Under the pieces are notes generated by a model. The model was not told the origin of the DNA and ran no database searches. It saw nothing but the letters and a program-made list of their open reading frames with translations. Position numbers and translations under genes: made by a program. A stretch of DNA of 64,000 nucleotides from Octopus vulgaris (taxonomy: Eukaryota). Where the stretch lies: contig OX597825.1 of assembly GCA_951406725.2 (NCBI GenBank), positions 58,466,001-58,530,000 of the forward strand. Reading direction: 5' to 3'. The first letter of the stretch is position 1; every line of letters starts with the position of its first letter. This document shows, piece by piece, positions 13,686 through 57,658 of the stretch.

Positions 13686-15335
13686 ACCACAAAAGAAATG
13701 TCACATACATTAACTGCAACAGTTGTAAGGGACCATGTTTGATTTTTGCAGATAATAAATTTTTATTAAATGTTAAATCTCCATTTTCTTACTTTCTTTT
13801 GAATGATTATAAACCATGATTTATATATAAACCTATGGTTTTATGAAGAATATTATTCACAATAAATATTAGGTATTAAATAGAAACTGGTTTTTCAACA
13901 GACTGCAATAGCATTGATTGAAGAGTGCTAATTAAGAAACTGTTCTTTCCTAATGATAAAACGTCATTTCCTGAAACATATTTGACGTCACATGGTGTCA
14001 CATGATGACACGAACTCAATATCTAGTGTGACCATCATTAGCATTGATTACCACCTGGCATCTTCTGTACATTGAATGCACCAAACGATGAAGATAGCAG
14101 CCCACACTCTGTTAAAGCTTGCAGTGAGTTGTGCCACAGTTGTTAGCCTTGGATGGATGTCATTTAGCCTTCTTTGGATTTCGTCCCACAGGTGTTCTAT
14201 GGGGTTCATGGTAGGCCATGGTAGTGTCTGGATGTTATGTTGTTGGATCAAGTTTGTTGTCAACCTAGCAGTATGGGCACAGGTGTTGTCATGTTGAAAC
14301 ACCTGATTCTGATGATGGGAAATGTATGACACAATGTGAGGCCTCAATATTTGGTCGGTGTAGCATGCAGCAGTTACTCTATTGCCTCAGCCTTGGCTGA
14401 TGTTTTGGAAGACCACCGGTCCAAGTTTCTGGGGTAAGTGTAATCCTGACCCATACCATAATGTTCTGTCCTCCCCATGAGTCTCTCTCCACCACAGCTA
14501 TCGGCATGACGTTCACCCCTTCTCCAAACTCTAGCTCTGTCATCTGCCACAGAAATGTAATATTGACTTTCATCAGAGAAGACTACAGTTCTCCACTGAT
14601 GATATCGTGAGTTCTGACATTTTTGAACCCACTGTAGACATGCCCGTCGATGATGGTCTGTGAAAATGGGAACCCCTAGCCGGACATCGATAAGACAGAT
14701 TGAAAGATCCAGCCGGCGGCGAACTGTCTCTGCACAAATGGGTCTGTAGTGAGTCCCTATGGTCTGCCTAGCTGATTCTGTTACCCCCTAGAATCAGTCC
14801 TACAAGTGCTGTTGGTGCAGGTAGTGATCTTGACATGCTGTTTTAACCTTCGGTTGGCCACTGTATGGATGATCATCCATTCTGTTTGCGGCATTGTATC
14901 ATTCCCTCAGCTGCTCAGTTGTCCGAATACTGCAGTTCAAGTCATTAACAATGACCCATGGACATTGACCAGCGTGGAGATGTCCAATGGCTTGCACCCT
15001 CTGATTTCTGTCAGTCCCGGCATGCTTGCTGTGTTCGACAAATGAGTGACAGCTTGGTAAATTTGAGTGCCTTTTATACCCAGTGAGCCAACCTTTTGCA
15101 CGTGTAGCATGCTTTTCATAAAGGTGTGTTCGCAAGTATTACCATCTTCACAAAAAGTGAGCAAGTTTGATACCTGCATGCAATCCTTGTTTTTTCAAAA
15201 GAGAGTGGTATTGTGGGTCAGTGACATCTTCCTGATGTCAAATTACCTAGAAATGTGATAAAATCCATATAATCTCAATATCGTGTGTGAAACAAATAAT
15301 CTTTTATAGTGCGACATTTCTTTTGTAGTTCAGTA
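13680..15335 (-). mobile_element. Tc1-family DNA transposon, full length, with disrupted transposase
   Basis: TIRs ACTGAACCACAAAAGAAATGTCAC / GCGACATTTCTTTTGTAGTTCAGT in TA context. ORF 14048-14347 has FQHDN...HTA...LPWP..MNPIEHLW (DD34E-type), with VFSDE upstream. Confidence 0.9.
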
Positions 15336-15700: not shown

Positions 15701-16140
15701 GTGATGATTATGGCCACAAACATAGCACAAGTATATGTACTGACAGGAAGGGGGGGGGGGTAAAAGCTATATACCATCTGGTTGGATTTGACTTACCTAT
15801 AAGCAATGGAATGGTATTTCTGATGAGCTTTAATTTTAAGTGAAATTGGCTTGCCAATTTAGTACCTTTGCTTGCCATAGGGTGGTTAACACCCCTGTCA
15901 GTACATAGACTTGTGCTATGTTTGTGGCTACAAGGGTCTTTGACTCTTATTTCTAACAATGTAGTATTTCGCCTGTTGCTATGTTCTGAGTTTAAATTCT
16001 GCAGAGGTCAACTTTGCCTTTCATCCTTTCAGGGTCGATAAAATAAATACCAGTTGAGCACTGGGGCCAATGTAATAATCTAGTCCCCTCCCACCAAAAT
16101 TTCTGGCCCTTGTGGCTTTAGTAGAAAGGATTATTATTAA

Positions 16141-19870: not shown

Positions 19871-20038
19871 ATGTTTTTATGTGCTAACAGTTTCATATGT
19901 CGAGAACTGCCCCAAACATATTCATCAGTAACAAGCCATATATCATAATGAGTTCTTTACGATATATGTGGTTTGTGCTTGATGAATATGTTTGAGGTAT
20001 TTTCAACACATGAAACTATTACTAGCGCATAAAAACAT
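19871..20038. mobile_element. Head-to-head fold-back pair of eroded hammerhead-bearing pseudo-LTRs
   Basis: Arms 19871-19948 and 19957-20038. Minus arm reads CTGATGA-ATATGT..ACATAT-GAAAC-TGTT-AGCAC; plus arm reads TTGATGA...GAAAC. Confidence 0.7.
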
Positions 20039-20134: not shown

Positions 20135-20177
<43 letters not shown>

Positions 20178-20328
20178 TAAATAAATAGAGTTGAACGCTG
20201 ATGCTATTCAAATTCTTTTACTTTTGACATATGTTTCAAAGACAACATTGGTTTTATAGCGTTCTGTTTATCATTTATGCAGTCAGCAAAATTGTTATGA
20301 TGTTTTGTTGTTGAGATAGGTTCTCTTT

Positions 20329-20414
20329 CTTTCCTGATGAGAAGATTGCATTTTTTTACACCGTTTATTCCTTTGGAATAAAACCAATATTGTCTTCGAA
20401 ACATATGTCGAAAG
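20329..20414 (+). ncRNA. Minimal type-I hammerhead ribozyme (intact core)
   Basis: Stem I CTTTC/GAAAG; CTGATGA 20334-20340; stem II GAAGA/TCTTC; GAAAC 20398-20402; palindromic ACATATGT stem III; cleavage triplet GTC 20407-20409. Confidence 0.85.
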
Positions 20415-20667
20415 TAAAAGAATTTGAATAGCATTTGCGTTCAATTCCATTTATTTACTTATACTATACAAATTACTGCACATTAACCCAGAGTTTCTAC
20501 CTTTGAATAGGTCACTACATCCTTGTTACTTGCATGAATTTTGCTACCCTGGTAACTGTTTATTGGATTTTCCATGTTAACGGTAAACAAAGGATAATTC
20601 ATTCATCCATTTACATATATATATATATATATATACATATATTATTCTTATACAAGAATGTTGTTGA

Positions 20668-20710
20668 CAGTGACTTTGAAGTTTCGGCCAGCTAAGCCAT
20701 CATCAGACTG
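20668..20710 (-). ncRNA. Minimal type-I hammerhead ribozyme (intact core)
   Basis: Minus strand: CAGT-CTGATGA-T-GGC..GCC-GAAAC-TTCAAA-GTC-ACTG. It lies in a fold-back with arms 20641-20693 and 20718-20770. Confidence 0.8.
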
Positions 20711-21108
20711 CTAGATAAGCTGGCCAAAACTCCAAAGTTACTGTCAACAACATTCTTGTATAGGAATAATAAATTTGTACTGCTCACAACTGAGATTTTA
20801 TCCAATGAATGACTGTTGTTCACATGATTGTTCTGTAGCCTGTCTGGAACTTTCCGTGAACACACCCTATAAAGCTGCAAGTGTACCCCACTGAAAAGAC
20901 CAAAAGAGCAAAAACGAATTTGATGCTCTTGCTGACCACTGCTGGGACAAGTTTTCATCTCTGATATTTATTGTTTTTAACACAGTAAGTCCATAACAAA
21001 TGTTATCTCAGGACAAATACTGCAGTAACTTGCCTATTAACAGTGTATCTATATTATACTATAAAGATGGTAATTTTAGTTAGAAATTGCCTCAGTTGTA
21101 TTTATCAG

Positions 21109-24849: not shown

Positions 24850-25342
24850 TTACATGGAAAAATACAAGCATGAAAAGTAATATTCTTAAGATTATAAACC
24901 TGGAAAAGTACAGGACAAGTTATTACACCTGTAAAAGTATAGAACAAGCTATTACTTCTAGTAAAGACTAAAAAACATTTTACTTAAAATATTGCAGCTA
25001 AAATTAAAATTTGAATATTAAAACTCATTTTATTATAGTTTACAAATAACACTAATTTAAGTAGAATTTGGCTAATTTACTACCTTAAATACAGAAAAAA
25101 GTGACTAATTAGGCAAACTTACAGTTTTGTACAATAAATTTATAAGATGAGAACTGAAAAGAGTGATAAATTAGAACTGGCATTCTTTGCTGCAATATTT
25201 TAAGTAAAAAGTTTCTTATTCTTTACTTTACTAGAAGTAATAGTTTGTCCTATACTTTTACAGGTGTAATAACTTGTCCTGTACTTTTCCAGGTTTATAA
25301 TCTTAAGAATATGACTTTCCATGCTCACATTTTTCCATGTAA
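24850..25342. mobile_element. Foldback/MITE-like element with ~150-bp inverted arms
   Basis: TTACATGGAAAAAT...ATATTGCAGC (24850-25002) versus GCTGCAATAT...ATTTTTCCATGTAA (25185-25342); internal ~29-bp tandem subrepeat. Confidence 0.7.
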
Positions 25343-27441: not shown

Positions 27442-28885
27442 TGAGGGTCAGTTGAAAACTTCATAGGCTGACCAAGTTACGCTCATGGAATGTCACCACA
27501 TGTGGTTTATTTTTCAACATGCAATCCACACACTTTTTTCATTGGTGTTGCAGTGCTTTGATCCCATTGGTGAAGAAGCTTTCATCCTGTTGGTCAAAAA
27601 AGCCATCAACAGCAGACCTGATGACATCATCACTGCTATACTGGTTCTCAGCCAAGTGTTTTTTTCATGTTGGGAACAGATGAGAGACAAGGTCAAATCA
27701 GGAGATTAGGGAGGGTGATCAAGCCACAGTTATGCTCAGTAGCTACTGAAAGCAAATACTTGTGTGCTGGAGCATTGACCTGATCAAACAAGGCCCTTTT
27801 GTTTAGTTTTCCTGGGTAGTTGGTCTTGATAGCCTTTTGTAACTGCCTCAGCAAGTTGGCATGATACTCTCCATTGATGGTGTGGCCCTTTTGAAGATAG
27901 TCAATAAACACTATGCCCTTTGCATCCCAAAAAACTGAAGCTATCACTTTCCCTGCGGATGAAACGACCTTGGCCTTTTTTTGGAGTAGGTGAGGAGGGA
28001 TGTTTCCATTGCATGGACTGCTTCTTTGTCTCTGGTCCAAAGTGATGAACCCAGCACTCATTTTGGCTTAGAAAATGCTCAAAGCAATCATCTGGATCTA
28101 CCTCCAACACTATAAAATTTTCCTGTAATACGATCAGCCTAGTGCACTTTTGATCAGGTGTCAGAAGACATGGTATCCACTGAGCAGAAAACTTTGTCAT
28201 GTTAAGTTCATTGAGCAGAATATTCTCAACTCTTTCACAGGATATGCTAATATTGGCTATTTGATTTATAGTCAATCACTTGTCATCCATCAGCATGTGG
28301 TGAATACAATCAGTGTTTTCCTCAGTGGTGGCATTTGCAGGGATGTTCAGACCTCAGTTTATCTTCAAAACTCTTCCTTCTTCTCCTAAATTCCGCTGCC
28401 CACTTTTACACTGTTGATAAAGCTGGAGCATCATCTCCTAATGTAGCAATCATGTAGCAATCATTTCTGCAGGCACTTGATAATACTACAATGTAAAATT
28501 TTGATGCAGCACGGAGTTTTGTCAGTGAACAGGTTGCGGTCTCAAAGCAATGAAAATATTTTGACAAATTAAATTTAAATGTTGAAGTGAATCTAACGGT
28601 CTTCTTAAATGGCTTATAAACACCTTCCACACTGCAATTGTTTTCGTTCCAGGACACGATTTCAGATCAGGTCACTTGCTATGCAAGTACATCTCCAAAA
28701 TTTTGTCCATTTTCAAGAAAAGTCACTACAAGTTACTTTTGCAGTCTTCTTTGAACAGTGTGATGTCAGTTTAACTGGAAAGAAGCAATGCGTCTATTAA
28801 TAAGTTGAAATTAATGCATACATGATTTCACAGCTCTAGCATCACTCCTTTATAGTCAGCCTATGAACTTTTCAGCCCACTCTCA
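27442..28885 (-). mobile_element. Mariner transposon (Himar1/irritans-like), disrupted
   Basis: TIRs TGAGGGTCAGTTGAAAACTTCATAGGCTGAC / GTCAGCCTATGAACTTTTCAGCCCACTCTCA. Protein fragments WIPCLLTPDQK, WVHHFGPETKKQSMQWKH and KVIASVFWDAKGIVFIDYLQKGHTING. Confidence 0.9.
28504..28696. mobile_element. 193-bp insertion in the mariner N-terminus with 9-bp TSD
   Basis: AAAATTTTG at 28495-28503 and 28697-28705. Confidence 0.7.
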
Positions 28886-35305: not shown

Positions 35306-35838
35306 CGAGGGGTGTATGAAAATTCTTGAGGCTCAAAAAAACATAACACAGTACAAGACTGCTGAGGATTTATTTTTCAACATAGTCCCTCTTGATGGCC
35401 GAACAATTTCTCCAGCAGTGCTGAAGCGCCATTATCCTGGTGTAGAGGAACTCTTTTGTTTGAGACTCCAAGAAACTTCCTGCAGTGTCTATGACGTCAT
35501 TGTCACTGGCAAAATGGCGACCAGCCAGGGCTTTTTTCATTTTAAGGAATAAATGAAAGTCATAGGGGACTAAGTCTGGCAAATAAGGTGGATGGGGAAC
35601 AAGTTCGTATCCACAATCACAAATTGTTGCCATGGGAACCACTGAGATGTGGGCTGGGGCATTGTCGTGATGAAAAAGGACTCCTCTGGTGAGCATTTCC
35701 AGCCTTTTTTCTTTGATTGCTTTTCGGAGGTGTTTCAGTAGCTGAGAATAATACAGCCTTGACACGGTGTGACCCTTTTCAAGGTAATCGATCAGCAAGA
35801 CACCTTGAGAATCCCAAAAGACTGATGCCAGCTGAAGG
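35306..35838 (-). mobile_element. Truncated mariner (DD34D catalytic half plus one TIR), inserted at TA in a family B SINE
   Basis: ORF 35370-35798 reads FHHDNAPAH...HPPYLPDLVPYDFHLF; TA-CGAGGGGTGTATGAAAA terminus. Confidence 0.9.
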
Positions 35839-35939
35839 AATTGACCCCCAAAAGGATGAAAGGCAAAGTCGACTTCGGAGGAATTTGAACTCAGAATGTA
35901 ATAGCAGATGGCACCTTGGGCAAGTGTCTTTTACTATAG

Positions 35940-38519: not shown

Positions 38520-38555
<36 letters not shown>

Positions 38556-38605
38556 TATATGTATAAACAAACATTTGTTTTTTTTTATAAGCATTGAAAT
38601 GTTTA

Positions 38606-38932
38606 TTGTAAGATACAAATAAGATGATAATTTATTTTTGAGTGCAGAGATGCTGTTAGAACAGCAGAAATTTTGGGTAAATTACCCTTTCAAAGTTGAA
38701 AAATTTGTCAACAACCAGCCATGGAACTTGAACCCACATCCCTTGAAGACTCAGCGGGCAGTTTAACATAATGGTAAAGCACTTGGCCTGAGTCTTCAAG
38801 GGCTGTGGGTTCGAGTTCCATGGTTGGTTGTTGACAAATTTTTCAACTTTGAAAGGGTAATTTACCCAATATATCTGCTGTTCTAACAGCATCTCTGCAT
38901 TCAAAAATAAATTATCATCTTATTTGTATCTT

Positions 38933-38936
<4 letters not shown>
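38606..38936 (+). mobile_element. Fold-back tRNA-head SINE (149-bp inverted arms)
   Basis: Arms 38606-38754 and 38788-38936 (about 6 mismatches); A box TAACATAATGG at 38764; B box GGTTCGAGTTCC at 38808. Confidence 0.85.
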
Positions 38937-38985
<49 letters not shown>

Positions 38986-38987
<2 letters not shown>

Positions 38988-39352
38988 GAGCAAAATACCC
39001 CCATCCAATGGACGGTGCTGGGTTGTCAAACATTTAAACCAAATTTTCTCAAAACAACTTGTCTGACTGTCCCATAGGCCTCCCCTTTGAGAAACACTGA
39101 TTTAACCTAAATTTGAGACACCAGCAAAAGAAGATATGACGATAGACTTTTTTCTATTCCAAGAAAAACGATTTTACAAATGCCCCTTCCCACAGCTTTA
39201 TCGATCGCATTCTCACCTGGAATCGATTTTTGTAATTTTTTCAAGATTTATACATGCCCTGATACTGTCAGTATTTACATATCAAATTTGAGCGCAATCG
39301 GATGGAAGATGCCTGAGATCCTAGAAGACACATACACAGACAGACAGAATGG

Positions 39353-39357
<5 letters not shown>
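38986..39357 (+). mobile_element. Non-autonomous Helitron-like element within (TA)n
   Basis: 5' TACGAGCAAAATACCC..GGACGG; 3' (CAGA)n then TTATATATA. The layout resembles Lep1-type Helitron derivatives. Confidence 0.5.
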
Positions 39358-53502: not shown

Positions 53503-53944
53503 TGGTTTCAAATTTTGGCACAAGGACAGCAATTTGGAGGGAAGGTTAAGTCGATTACATCAACTCCAGTGCTCAACTGGTACTTATATTATCGATCCTC
53601 AAAGGATGAAAGGCAAAGTTGTCGTCGGTGAATTTGAACTCAGGAAGAAAGGCCTCTAAGCATCATACCTGGCATGCTAATGATTCTGCCAGTTCACTGC
53701 CTTTTGAAAAGACATTATTAACAGCTTCAAAAGGCAGTGAGCTAGCAGAATCGTTAGCACACCGGGCAAAATGTTTAGCGGTATTTCATCTGCCGCTACA
53801 TTCTGAGTTCAAATTCCACCAAGGTCGACTTTATTTTTCATCCTTTCGGGGTTGATAAATTAAGTACCAGTTGAGTACTGGGGTCGATCTAATCGACTTG
53901 CCCCCTCCCCCAAAATTTCGGGCCTTGTGCCTAGAGTAGAAAAG
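53503..53944. mobile_element. Head-to-head pair of family B SINEs
   Basis: Minus copy 53503-53703; plus copy 53731-53944 with 17-bp TSD ATTATTAACAGCTTCAA. Confidence 0.85.
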
Positions 53945-56178: not shown

Positions 56179-56519
56179 AAAAAAAGAAAGAAAGTATTTA
56201 TGTATGTATATATGTATGTATGCATGTATAAAGCTAGAATAGTGGTTACCACCTTGAAGGTGGTGCTGCACAAACTGATATATGCATACTTGGTATCCAC
56301 AGAATATTCCAAGTATGTATATATTAGCTAGTGCAGCCCCACCTTTAAGGTCAGAGCTGGTAATCACTATTCTAGCATTAAATCTTGACTGAAAACTAGC
56401 AGCAGTTCTTTATCTAAGCTCATTCATAACCTAAAACAAAACTTAGCCCTAAAGAATTTTAAATAGTTCATTGTTACCCATGCCAAACCATATAATAGTT
56501 ATCAACAACAAATGTAATA

Positions 56520-56873
56520 CAGTTCTATGTTTAAGACATGAGGAATTATGTACATTATTTACAATTGACAGATATTTGTCCTCATCTTGTTTGTTGTTAA
56601 CACAATGTTTCAGCTGATATACCCATGGGTATATGGCATAGTGGTTAAGAGCGCGAGCTACTAACCCCAAGATTCCGAGTTCAATTCCAGGCAGTGACCT
56701 GAATAATAATAATAATAATAAAAATAATAAAATCAAAAAATACCTTAGGAATTAGAACTCAGGTTCGAAATTTCCCCAAGACACCTGATGAAGGCTGGAA
56801 GGTATATTAGCCGAAACGTTGTGTTAACAACAAACAAGATGAGGACAAATATCTGTCAAATGTAAATAATGTA
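56520..56873 (+). mobile_element. Fold-back element: tRNA-derived head + (AAT)n + hammerhead + tail
   Basis: A box TGGCATAGTGG at 56634; B box GAGTTCAATTCC at 56677; arms 56551-56623 and 56801-56873. Confidence 0.85.
56780..56825 (+). ncRNA. Minimal type-I hammerhead ribozyme
   Basis: GACAC-CTGATGA-A-GGCT..AGCC-GAAAC-GTT-GTGTT; palindromic AACGTT in place of a stem III hairpin. Confidence 0.75.
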
Positions 56874-57658
56874 AATAACGAACAAATGTGATCTCTGTAT
56901 TGGAGAAGTCTTATCTATTATGCAATGCAGCAATTGCCTAAATGAACAGAGTGACCTAATTCTAAATTGCAAATGCAAGTTATGTAACACATTCTTAAAG
57001 TTCAAATAATAGTGTCCTTCCCAGTTATTCCCTAGTTAATCCTCCTGTATCTCCATCCTCAACTTGAAGCTTATCTATGTATTTAGCTACCATTATGTTT
57101 TTTTCTTAGCCCTGTGATCTCTCTACATCACACACAACAGCCGGTCTGGGAATCGAAACAGCAATCCTCCGACTGCGAGTCCGCTGCTCTAACCACTGGG
57201 CCATTGCACCTCCACAAATACATACATACATGCATATATACATACATACATACATACACATGAGAATATGCAGGTGCATATGCACACATGCACACCTACA
57301 GGATACTATAGGTGCATAGAGAATGTACTCATGGGGATGTGAATGTTAAGTAGTAAGCCACTAATTTAACTCTGACTGTTATGTTCCCATTATGTCTAGA
57401 AACTTTATCACCCAGCTCCTCCTCTTTCTTCTCCATCCTCTCTTCTTCCTTCCTAGCAAATCCCCCTTACTCCCACTCCTAAATATTTGATCTCTTCTCT
57501 TCCTTTTCTTCTCATTCTTGACCATTTCACTTCTAAAAATTCTTTTTTCTTTTTTGATTAGGTATAAATATATATGCATGCATGTAATAAAATATATATT
57601 TCCTGCTGATATAGTAAAATGACTTAATATCCACAATGACTTACCTCTCAGGTAGCAT

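Follow-up and report, generated by a model that had tools for sequence, protein, structure and literature searches.

A tRNA-bearing, hammerhead-less fold-back repeat between (TA)n tracts, a probable passenger of a Penelope-like element

Structure and limits of the fold-back

We analysed a 64,000-nucleotide stretch of genomic DNA (the window), in which the top local inverted repeat after masking was a pair at 38606-38936 (BLAST E 5e-131). The window resembles animal DNA rich in repeats, and its SINE motifs suggest an octopod host. The two arms, 38606-38754 and 38788-38936, were 149 nt each and identical at 143 of 149 positions (96.0%), with a 33-nt spacer between them. Arm alignment divided the pair into an inverted, 5'-truncated copy on the minus strand (38606-38754), holding the 3' half of a tRNA-like segment and a body, and a direct arm of the same content on the plus strand (38788-38936), which was tail-less and which a flank check placed flush with (TA)n. 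The spacer (38755-38787, plus strand) was unduplicated and contained the 5' half of the tRNA-like segment. A sequence-only reading of the same DNA had described 149-bp arms of about 96% identity around a 33-nt spacer containing an A box, with the B box present in both arms, and all of this was confirmed. There was no second copy within the 64-kb window.

Copies were recovered from public sequencing runs. Five runs from four studies, one of them possibly the source, contained 73-96% of the sampled words; no RNA run was listed as containing them, which says nothing about expression. Contigs matching at 80% likeness were found in all four of the runs compared, which carry four species labels (814 in run X4 and 592, 466 and 699 in the others), and those less than 90% alike numbered 456 (X4), 345, 265 and 379. 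The family is an old multicopy one, of roughly a few hundred copies by the ratio of summed to single-locus depth, which is not a true copy number. Pattern matches in metagenome contigs (7 loci) and viral contigs (17 loci) covered only 17-34 nt around the motif with no extension, and were set aside as chance.

The left end had been placed at 38606, but contigs of other copies still matched through 38605 to at least 38564. The element is therefore asymmetric and spans about 38561-38936. The added stretch is a one-sided 3' tail belonging to the inverted copy only (38561-38605, minus strand), 45 nt long here and about 41 nt in the family; the comparison stretch ended at 38564 and the outer 3 nt were taken from the (TA)n edge. 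Family contigs covered 38564-38605 in all four runs with depth stepping down, in X4 from 3422 to 2388, 1212 and 526 leftwards over four bins in the tail. Loose ends lay before 38604 and before 38578/9, and some family contigs omitted 3-4 letters at 38584. Eleven X4 contigs ended near 38604 beside (TA)n-like letters and others continued into the tail, and the family therefore has two kinds of 3' end. The copy at 38561-38936 has one of each, a tail-less end on the right and a tailed end on the left, followed by (TA)n at 38560. On its minus strand the tail carries AATAAA and A9, which were considered as a LINE-type poly(A) end and rejected because the family does not share them (at 38603, 2618 of the 2818 X4 depth has another letter). 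The earlier statement that there is no poly(A) tail thus holds for the family.

Remnants of the (TA)n target flank the corrected element on both sides (38545-38560 on the left and 38937-38986 on the right), and the right end adjoins (TA)n as had been reported. The absence of a TSD had also been reported, which is correct for the 38606 boundary only. With the longer boundary, 38545-38560 recurs as 38936-38951, a 16-nt direct repeat inside the microsatellite that is indistinguishable from a TSD, and for this reason the absence of a TSD is not asserted here. The left tract may be one half of a TSD of 15-16 nt, which would look the same as microsatellite. A duplication of TA, the fixed short TSD of a MITE, would likewise be invisible inside (TA)n.

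The arms differed by three changes private to the left arm (38642, 38672, 38729) and three private to the right arm (38803, 38824, 38873). Private change was about 2% per arm, which would place the insertion at about 5-6 million years ago at the rate of PMC13282606, assuming an octopus host and no conversion. At least three family-rare letters were common to both arms (38852, 38845 and 38817; 79-97% of the X4 depth differs), and the arms therefore descend from a derived source copy or underwent later arm-to-arm conversion or duplication. Among the listed contigs none spans the whole stretch, as would fit an assembly artefact created by a fold-back chimeric read. However, the six arm differences with three private to each arm, the high share of sampled words held by the five runs, and a depth of about 10 over 38751 in both X4 and X2 all argue against an artefact, the chance of which we consider negligible. 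The same depth suggests that the junction at 38751 exists in two species labels.

The tRNA-like segment, the body and the search for a ribozyme

The tRNA-like segment lies at 38757-38829 on the plus strand and has a full cloverleaf span (positions 1-71 of Rfam RF00005) with a 9-nt anticodon loop. The Rfam tRNA model aligned end to end but weakly, scoring 12.9 bits where the gathering score is 29, with E 4.8 across all families. ARAGORN found no tRNAs. Using patterns that we take to be the A and B box consensus, the A box was located at 38764-38774 (plus strand, one mismatch to the consensus) and the B box at 38808-38818 (plus strand), 44 nt after the A box, with a duplicate B box in the inverted copy at 38724-38734 (minus strand). 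The 44-nt spacing was the same as in eight other tRNA-like repeats of the window. When the majority letters of the family were read by hand they added pairs in the T stem (38817), the acceptor stem (38824) and the anticodon stem (38798), and the letters at loose ends behind 38752 also added pairs in the D stem. Because the family letters add stem pairs, the tRNA origin is firmer than the Rfam score implies.

A T5 run resembling a Pol III terminator was found at 38839-38843 (plus strand), 10 nt after the tRNA 3' end, and was repeated in the left arm at 38699-38703. Its positions were unchanged among 40 of 505 substitution rows, and one other copy has T4. None of the eight other A/B-box repeats in the window had T4 or longer within 100 nt of the B box. 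Such a T run ends Pol III transcription, and an A-rich context can weaken the termination. T5 stands so close to the tRNA that a plain Pol III SINE becomes less likely, and judged from its letters the module looks more like a tRNA gene with its own terminator than like a SINE head. The element had been called a SINE, a label to which the tRNA-derived head with A and B boxes conforms but which is made doubtful by the T5 and by the family sequence present upstream of the head.

Both hairpins that had been named in the body were present on the plus strand, hairpin 1 at 38855-38867 (GGGTAA-T-TTACCC, 6 bp with a 1-nt loop) and hairpin 2 at 38876-38891 (TGCTGTT-CT-AACAGCA, 7 bp with a 2-nt loop). 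The body contained three perfect hairpins with stems of 6 bp or more and loops no longer than 2 nt, where shuffled sequences gave 0.15 (P 0.002), and the fold of 38750-38945 was no better than shuffles (z -0.9). In the 40 of 505 rows, hairpin 1 was free of frequent substitutions. In hairpin 2 position 38888 is G in 59% of the X4 depth, giving a wobble pair, and diverged subfamilies differ there. Neither conservation nor covariation of the hairpins was supported, and no covariation appeared in these rows, which are tallies and not aligned copies. A 5-bp stem-loop at the tail-less 3' end (38924-38936, plus strand) is a candidate for the first RT start site by analogy with the stem-loop start of Poseidon.

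Two palindromes, at 38830-38847 and 38841-38854, were considered but are not characteristic of the family, most of whose depth has other letters at 38845, 38846 and 38852. The letters of the present copy at these three positions are rare or minor family changes that occur in both arms and together make the perfect 6-bp palindrome at 38841-38854, possibly through a quasi-palindrome template switch. Read by hand, the family letters at 38845, 38846, 38899 and 38903 would permit a long stem of 38839-38847 with 38897-38908, which would close both hairpins and is lost in the copy at 38561-38936.

No hammerhead core with zero or one mismatch had both stems in the element, in agreement with the earlier reading; the stem test was passed by three of four control motifs elsewhere in the window. 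The type I hammerhead in each unit that defines non-LTR retrozymes was likewise absent from the element. Rfam gave no matches at the gathering threshold and no ribozyme family in relaxed scans to E 10, and there was no Rfam match to the twister ribozyme; otherwise the relaxed scans returned noise from hairpins of microRNA type and from microsatellites. The silence of Rfam on ribozymes is weak evidence because the same scan missed the neighbouring hammerhead element. We also considered a degenerate retrozyme, in which the ribozyme of the family, a hammerhead variant or one of another class, was lost in this old copy. The motif TTGACAA at 38831 fits a U3-A8 core variant given in the accessible part of PMC4209133, and a core at 38875, two letters off, has CGAAA behind it at 38902 in the family (38903 is G in 63% of the X4 depth). 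However, the core at 38831 has neither stem I nor stem II and the GAAA that goes with it is peculiar to this copy (95% of the X4 depth has T at 38852), while the core at 38875 is without two normally invariant A residues and showed no change there among the 40 of 505 rows. With the Rfam scans also against it, a degenerate retrozyme is very unlikely.

Junctions between copies

The sequence-only reading had proposed that copies be surveyed for variable inversion breakpoints, and these were found. Among the 15 joints listed (of 125), ten were head-to-head, passing from antisense to sense at ten different breakpoints; in five of these the joint was exact or the letters between were known, and in five there were undetermined letters between. 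Three listed joints were head-to-tail (38595/38759, 38597/38769 and 38936/38751) and the remaining two were mapping switches in continuous copies. A second junction table (12 of its 32 rows) added seven further head-to-head junctions, with one same-arm replacement row not counted. In all there were at least 17 distinct head-to-head junctions, 12 of them with an exact joint or known between-letters, and junction 38674/38827 recurred in three of the four runs. Contigs fragment at repeats, so that joint counts give no share of plain single copies, and contigs built from short words can mis-join repeats.

The junction of the copy at 38561-38936 carries a 4-nt microhomology, TCAG at 38751-38754, which is part of the family leader and also equals 38788-38791 in reverse complement. 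In three records a family piece begins at 38751, and loose ends lie before it. The letters before 38751 in 16, 20 and 7 contigs of X4, X2 and X6 had an agreement of 0.65-0.70 and by eye resembled tail ends, which is expected if heads often follow tails. At a locus common to X2 and X4, 136 unlisted letters lie between an inverted piece and a full head at 38751; the insert may be a direct partial copy with a tail, giving the full three-part layout of a Penelope-like element (PLE), or a longer 5' region. Position 38751 is also crossed, with a different letter, by a contig from X7 (organism D); should this represent the orthologous insertion, the arm difference of 4% underestimates the age of the event.

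The junctions bear on the nature of the fold-back. A MITE or foldback DNA transposon with long TIRs, a captured tRNA piece and a TA duplication would account for the long arms and TA-rich flanks, and it could draw on the mariner/Tc1 fragments in the window and on the three small perfect DNA palindromes in the arms, in excess of the 0.15 expected (P 0.002). However, one of the three palindromes occurs only in the copy at 38561-38936, the ends are asymmetric and tandem forms exist. The uniform arms and spacer of a fixed-arm MITE were not seen; arm length and spacer differed in every listed junction. Because copies join head-to-head at many breakpoints or head-to-tail, a fixed-arm MITE is ruled out, and we regard a DNA transposon of any such form as highly improbable.

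An ordinary LINE-dependent tRNA SINE, with a minority of inverted copies arising from twin priming or from a neighbouring second insertion, would agree with the SINE-like spacing of the A and B boxes and with a SINE-rich genome, and the share of plain copies, which is not derivable from the fragmented contigs, leaves room for it. Twin priming splits one RNA into non-overlapping pieces. Both pieces keep the 3' end, however, here and in other copies. The family is also without a poly(A) or simple-repeat tail, has T5 directly behind the head, and shows head-to-tail joints and a one-sided tail, all of which speak against a LINE-dependent SINE. We consider this explanation unlikely.

A decayed inserted repeat could alternatively have been duplicated as a fold-back at the DNA level, by a replication template switch or by break repair at the TA tract, with no retrotransposition involved. 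Tracts of (TA)n are break-prone, the arms differ by only 4% in a family whose contigs mostly fall below 90% likeness (456 of 814 in X4), and both arms carry the same rare letters and the same CpG-decay states. Under the PLE reading the shared letters can be put down to later arm conversion. Neither arm is a part of the other, as the left has the tail without the head and the right the head without the tail, and the numerous different head-to-head junctions of one family are a further point against duplication. So is the fact that unrelated families in the window show the same fold-back flush with (TA)n. In five of eight single-element fold-backs in the window, including that at 38561-38936, one end adjoined (TA)n or stood 1 nt away from it, where the background rate is 0.8% per side, and three of the five carried a hammerhead-type core. 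A ninth inverted pair, formed by two SINE copies at 53506-53942 that are 72% alike and belong to an abundant SINE-like repeat, was excluded from this count. A duplication at the DNA level is distinctly unlikely.

Mobilisation by a Penelope-like element and relation to known systems

The best reading of the element, which we consider probable, is a non-autonomous unit moved in trans by an endonuclease-bearing PLE. It is preferred because the features seen in the family, namely variable inverted 5'-truncated copies, partial head-to-tail tandems, a one-sided tail and a (TA)n target, match published PLE insertions; a PLE-style insertion route had been proposed from the sequence, and the variable junctions support it. 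The unit is about 225 nt long and consists of a short leader, the tRNA-like segment, T5, an AT-rich body and a tail of about 40 nt. Since T5 should bring a normal Pol III transcript to an end, the most likely sources of the template RNA are tandem copies that are read through or Pol III termination that is leaky.

In the proposed mechanism the RT and GIY-YIG endonuclease of a (TA)n-targeting PLE would copy the unit in trans. The enzyme would nick both strands of a (TA)n tract, and the right DNA end would prime cDNA at an internal start site at 38936 and be extended to the RNA 5' end. The left DNA end would prime about 40 nt further 3' and synthesis would stop in the anticodon arm, after which the two cDNA 3' ends would pair through TCAG/CTGA and be filled in. 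The outcome would be a head-to-head pair with a tail on one side, for which a hammerhead would be unneeded. Between this two-ended priming step and a self-priming fold-back we see about even odds.

Related features are known from PLE work, as given in the accessible portions of the sources. Naiads (Craig et al. 2021, 10.1101/2021.04.23.441226 / PMC8557442) form inverted 5'-truncated copies and partial tandems and have a one-sided tail of 30-40 bp, a (TA)n bias that hides the TSD and no hammerhead, and the supplement of PMC8557442 lists octopus Naiad and Hydra families with a (TA)n preference, so that Naiads would occur in the present host if it is an octopus. Frangieh et al. describe a Poseidon protein that nicks and extends both strands, RT with two neighbouring internal start sites within a stem-loop, and hammerhead-dead Poseidon RNA that inserts normally in vitro. 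Arkhipova et al. present the self-priming model and an inverted pLTR that overlaps its direct counterpart where the two join. Published work on the hammerhead-less Naiads and the hammerhead-dead Poseidon mutants has already shown that the ribozyme is dispensable, and this part of the sequence-only reading adds nothing beyond it.

A PLE sharing the tail had also been suggested as a test. Eight motifs of 11-13 nt gave no matches in the Naiad/Chlamys/Hydra consensus file (PMC8557442), a search in which line breaks and the private changes of the copy at 38561-38936 can hide matches. By eye and without statistics, four or five short words were colinear between the unit and two octopus Naiad 3' ends, with differing spacing. 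Pfam matched no RT or GIY-YIG remnants in 118 of the 283 stop-to-stop frames of the window.

An extension of the PLE reading is that the tRNA cloverleaf takes the place of the hammerhead, with RNase P cutting tandem read-through RNA at the 5' edge of the cloverleaf and a hammerhead-less PLE such as Naiad copying the product. The block that T5 should impose on a full-length Pol III transcript would be in keeping with this, the family letters keep all four stems pairable, the acceptor stem included, and in all three listed tandem joints the copy on the downstream side begins within 38751-38769, close to tRNA position 1 (38757). None of them begins exactly at 38757, however, and the 9-nt anticodon loop is a further point against this extension. 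On these sequence features we regard the RNase P step as a tentative suggestion with a limited chance of being correct.

The element shares with Naiads the inverted truncated copy, partial tandems, one-sided tail, (TA)n target and lack of a hammerhead, but it has no ORF, measures about 225 nt as compared to 3.4-4.4 kb, carries a tRNA-like segment and had no exact motif matches to the published Naiad and Hydra ends. Non-autonomous PLE derivatives are known, with MRC1 named among Chlamys elements in the consulted part of PMC8557442 and retrozymes in that of PMC7229834, and the available pages of a curation guide allow that retrozymes may count as a new SINE type. The present unit resembles non-LTR retrozymes and MRC1 in being short and non-coding within the 170-400 nt range, in its head-to-tail forms and in its presumed PLE dependence. 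Unlike it, the retrozymes have a type I hammerhead (PMC7229834, accessible part). No tRNA module is described for retrozymes in the accessible text, and the word tRNA has no occurrence in the available text of bioRxiv 10.64898/2026.07.22.740005. Schistosoma Sm-alpha and Sj-alpha are similar in being tRNA-derived, high-copy, SINE-like and linked to the hammerhead world, but they carry a hammerhead, and PLE-type inverted insertions or tails are not described for them in the accessible part of PMC2770079. The TRIMp3 elements Helenus, Ajax and Cassandra, as covered in the available part of PMC10886601, are similar in having a small-RNA-derived Pol III module and a non-LINE mobilisation. They are LTR elements with PBS, PPT and fixed 4-5 bp TSDs, and the element described here would be their PLE counterpart if the reading is true.

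As in LINE-dependent tRNA SINEs, a tRNA segment with A and B boxes lies near the 5' end and is followed by an unrelated body. Unlike in those SINEs, T5 stands behind the head, no A-rich or simple-repeat tail is seen, and insertions are head-to-head and tandem. The octopus tRNA SINE families OK, OR1 and OR2 were reportedly described by Ohshima and Okada in 1994; they are set apart here by description only, and the present family may already have a Repbase or Dfam name or an entry in the octopus repeat library of PMC13282606. In the openly accessible literature, covered by title, opening of the abstract and selected passages, we found no description of a tRNA-bearing, hammerhead-less element with PLE-type insertions, and the pairing of a tRNA module with the PLE copying route looks undescribed. 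For the milder claim, that a tRNA-bearing PLE-mobilised element is undescribed in the searchable literature, we see a slightly better than even chance.

SINE-like elements are normally paired with LINEs, and the LTR passengers of the TRIMp3 type have been named only recently. If the reading is true, a tRNA-bearing PLE passenger would fill a third slot beside the LINE and LTR passengers, and some invertebrate repeats annotated as SINE or MITE would be misfiled. The 225-nt unit with its hundreds of natural junctions would also provide a compact test of how PLE inversions, tandems and one-sided tails form, making the question of two annealing primed ends versus self-priming testable.

Other repeats of the window were recorded alongside. 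In the same 118 of 283 frames Pfam matched only transposase fragments and two weak DUFs; the fragments, at 35373-35930, 27696-28067 and 14051-14386, are of mariner/Tc1 type (PF01359 twice and a weak PF13358). A fold-back at 56546-56878 combines a tRNA-like head, whose A and B boxes lie near 56634-56688, with a minimal hammerhead that has its core at 56785, a stem II of 6 bp and a stem I of 5 bp; its inverted left arm seemingly extends further 3' than the right; from this arrangement it seems to be a chimera of tRNA and hammerhead of PLE type with an Sm-alpha-like layout. Three adjacent short fold-backs with hammerhead-type cores (19871-20038, 20175-20460 and 20637-20774) have left ends flush with (TA)n, and in the first of them stem I was not found. 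The fold-back at 24851-25341 has neither a hammerhead core nor A and B boxes and is flush with (TA)n at its right end. Two short fold-backs, 15713-15928 and 56229-56380, lie away from (TA)n, the first with a hammerhead-like core at 15820. To the right of the element an insert at 38987-39355 lies between two (TA)n runs and ends in a short CAGA-type repeat, which presumably resembles the ends of DINE-1/HINE elements.
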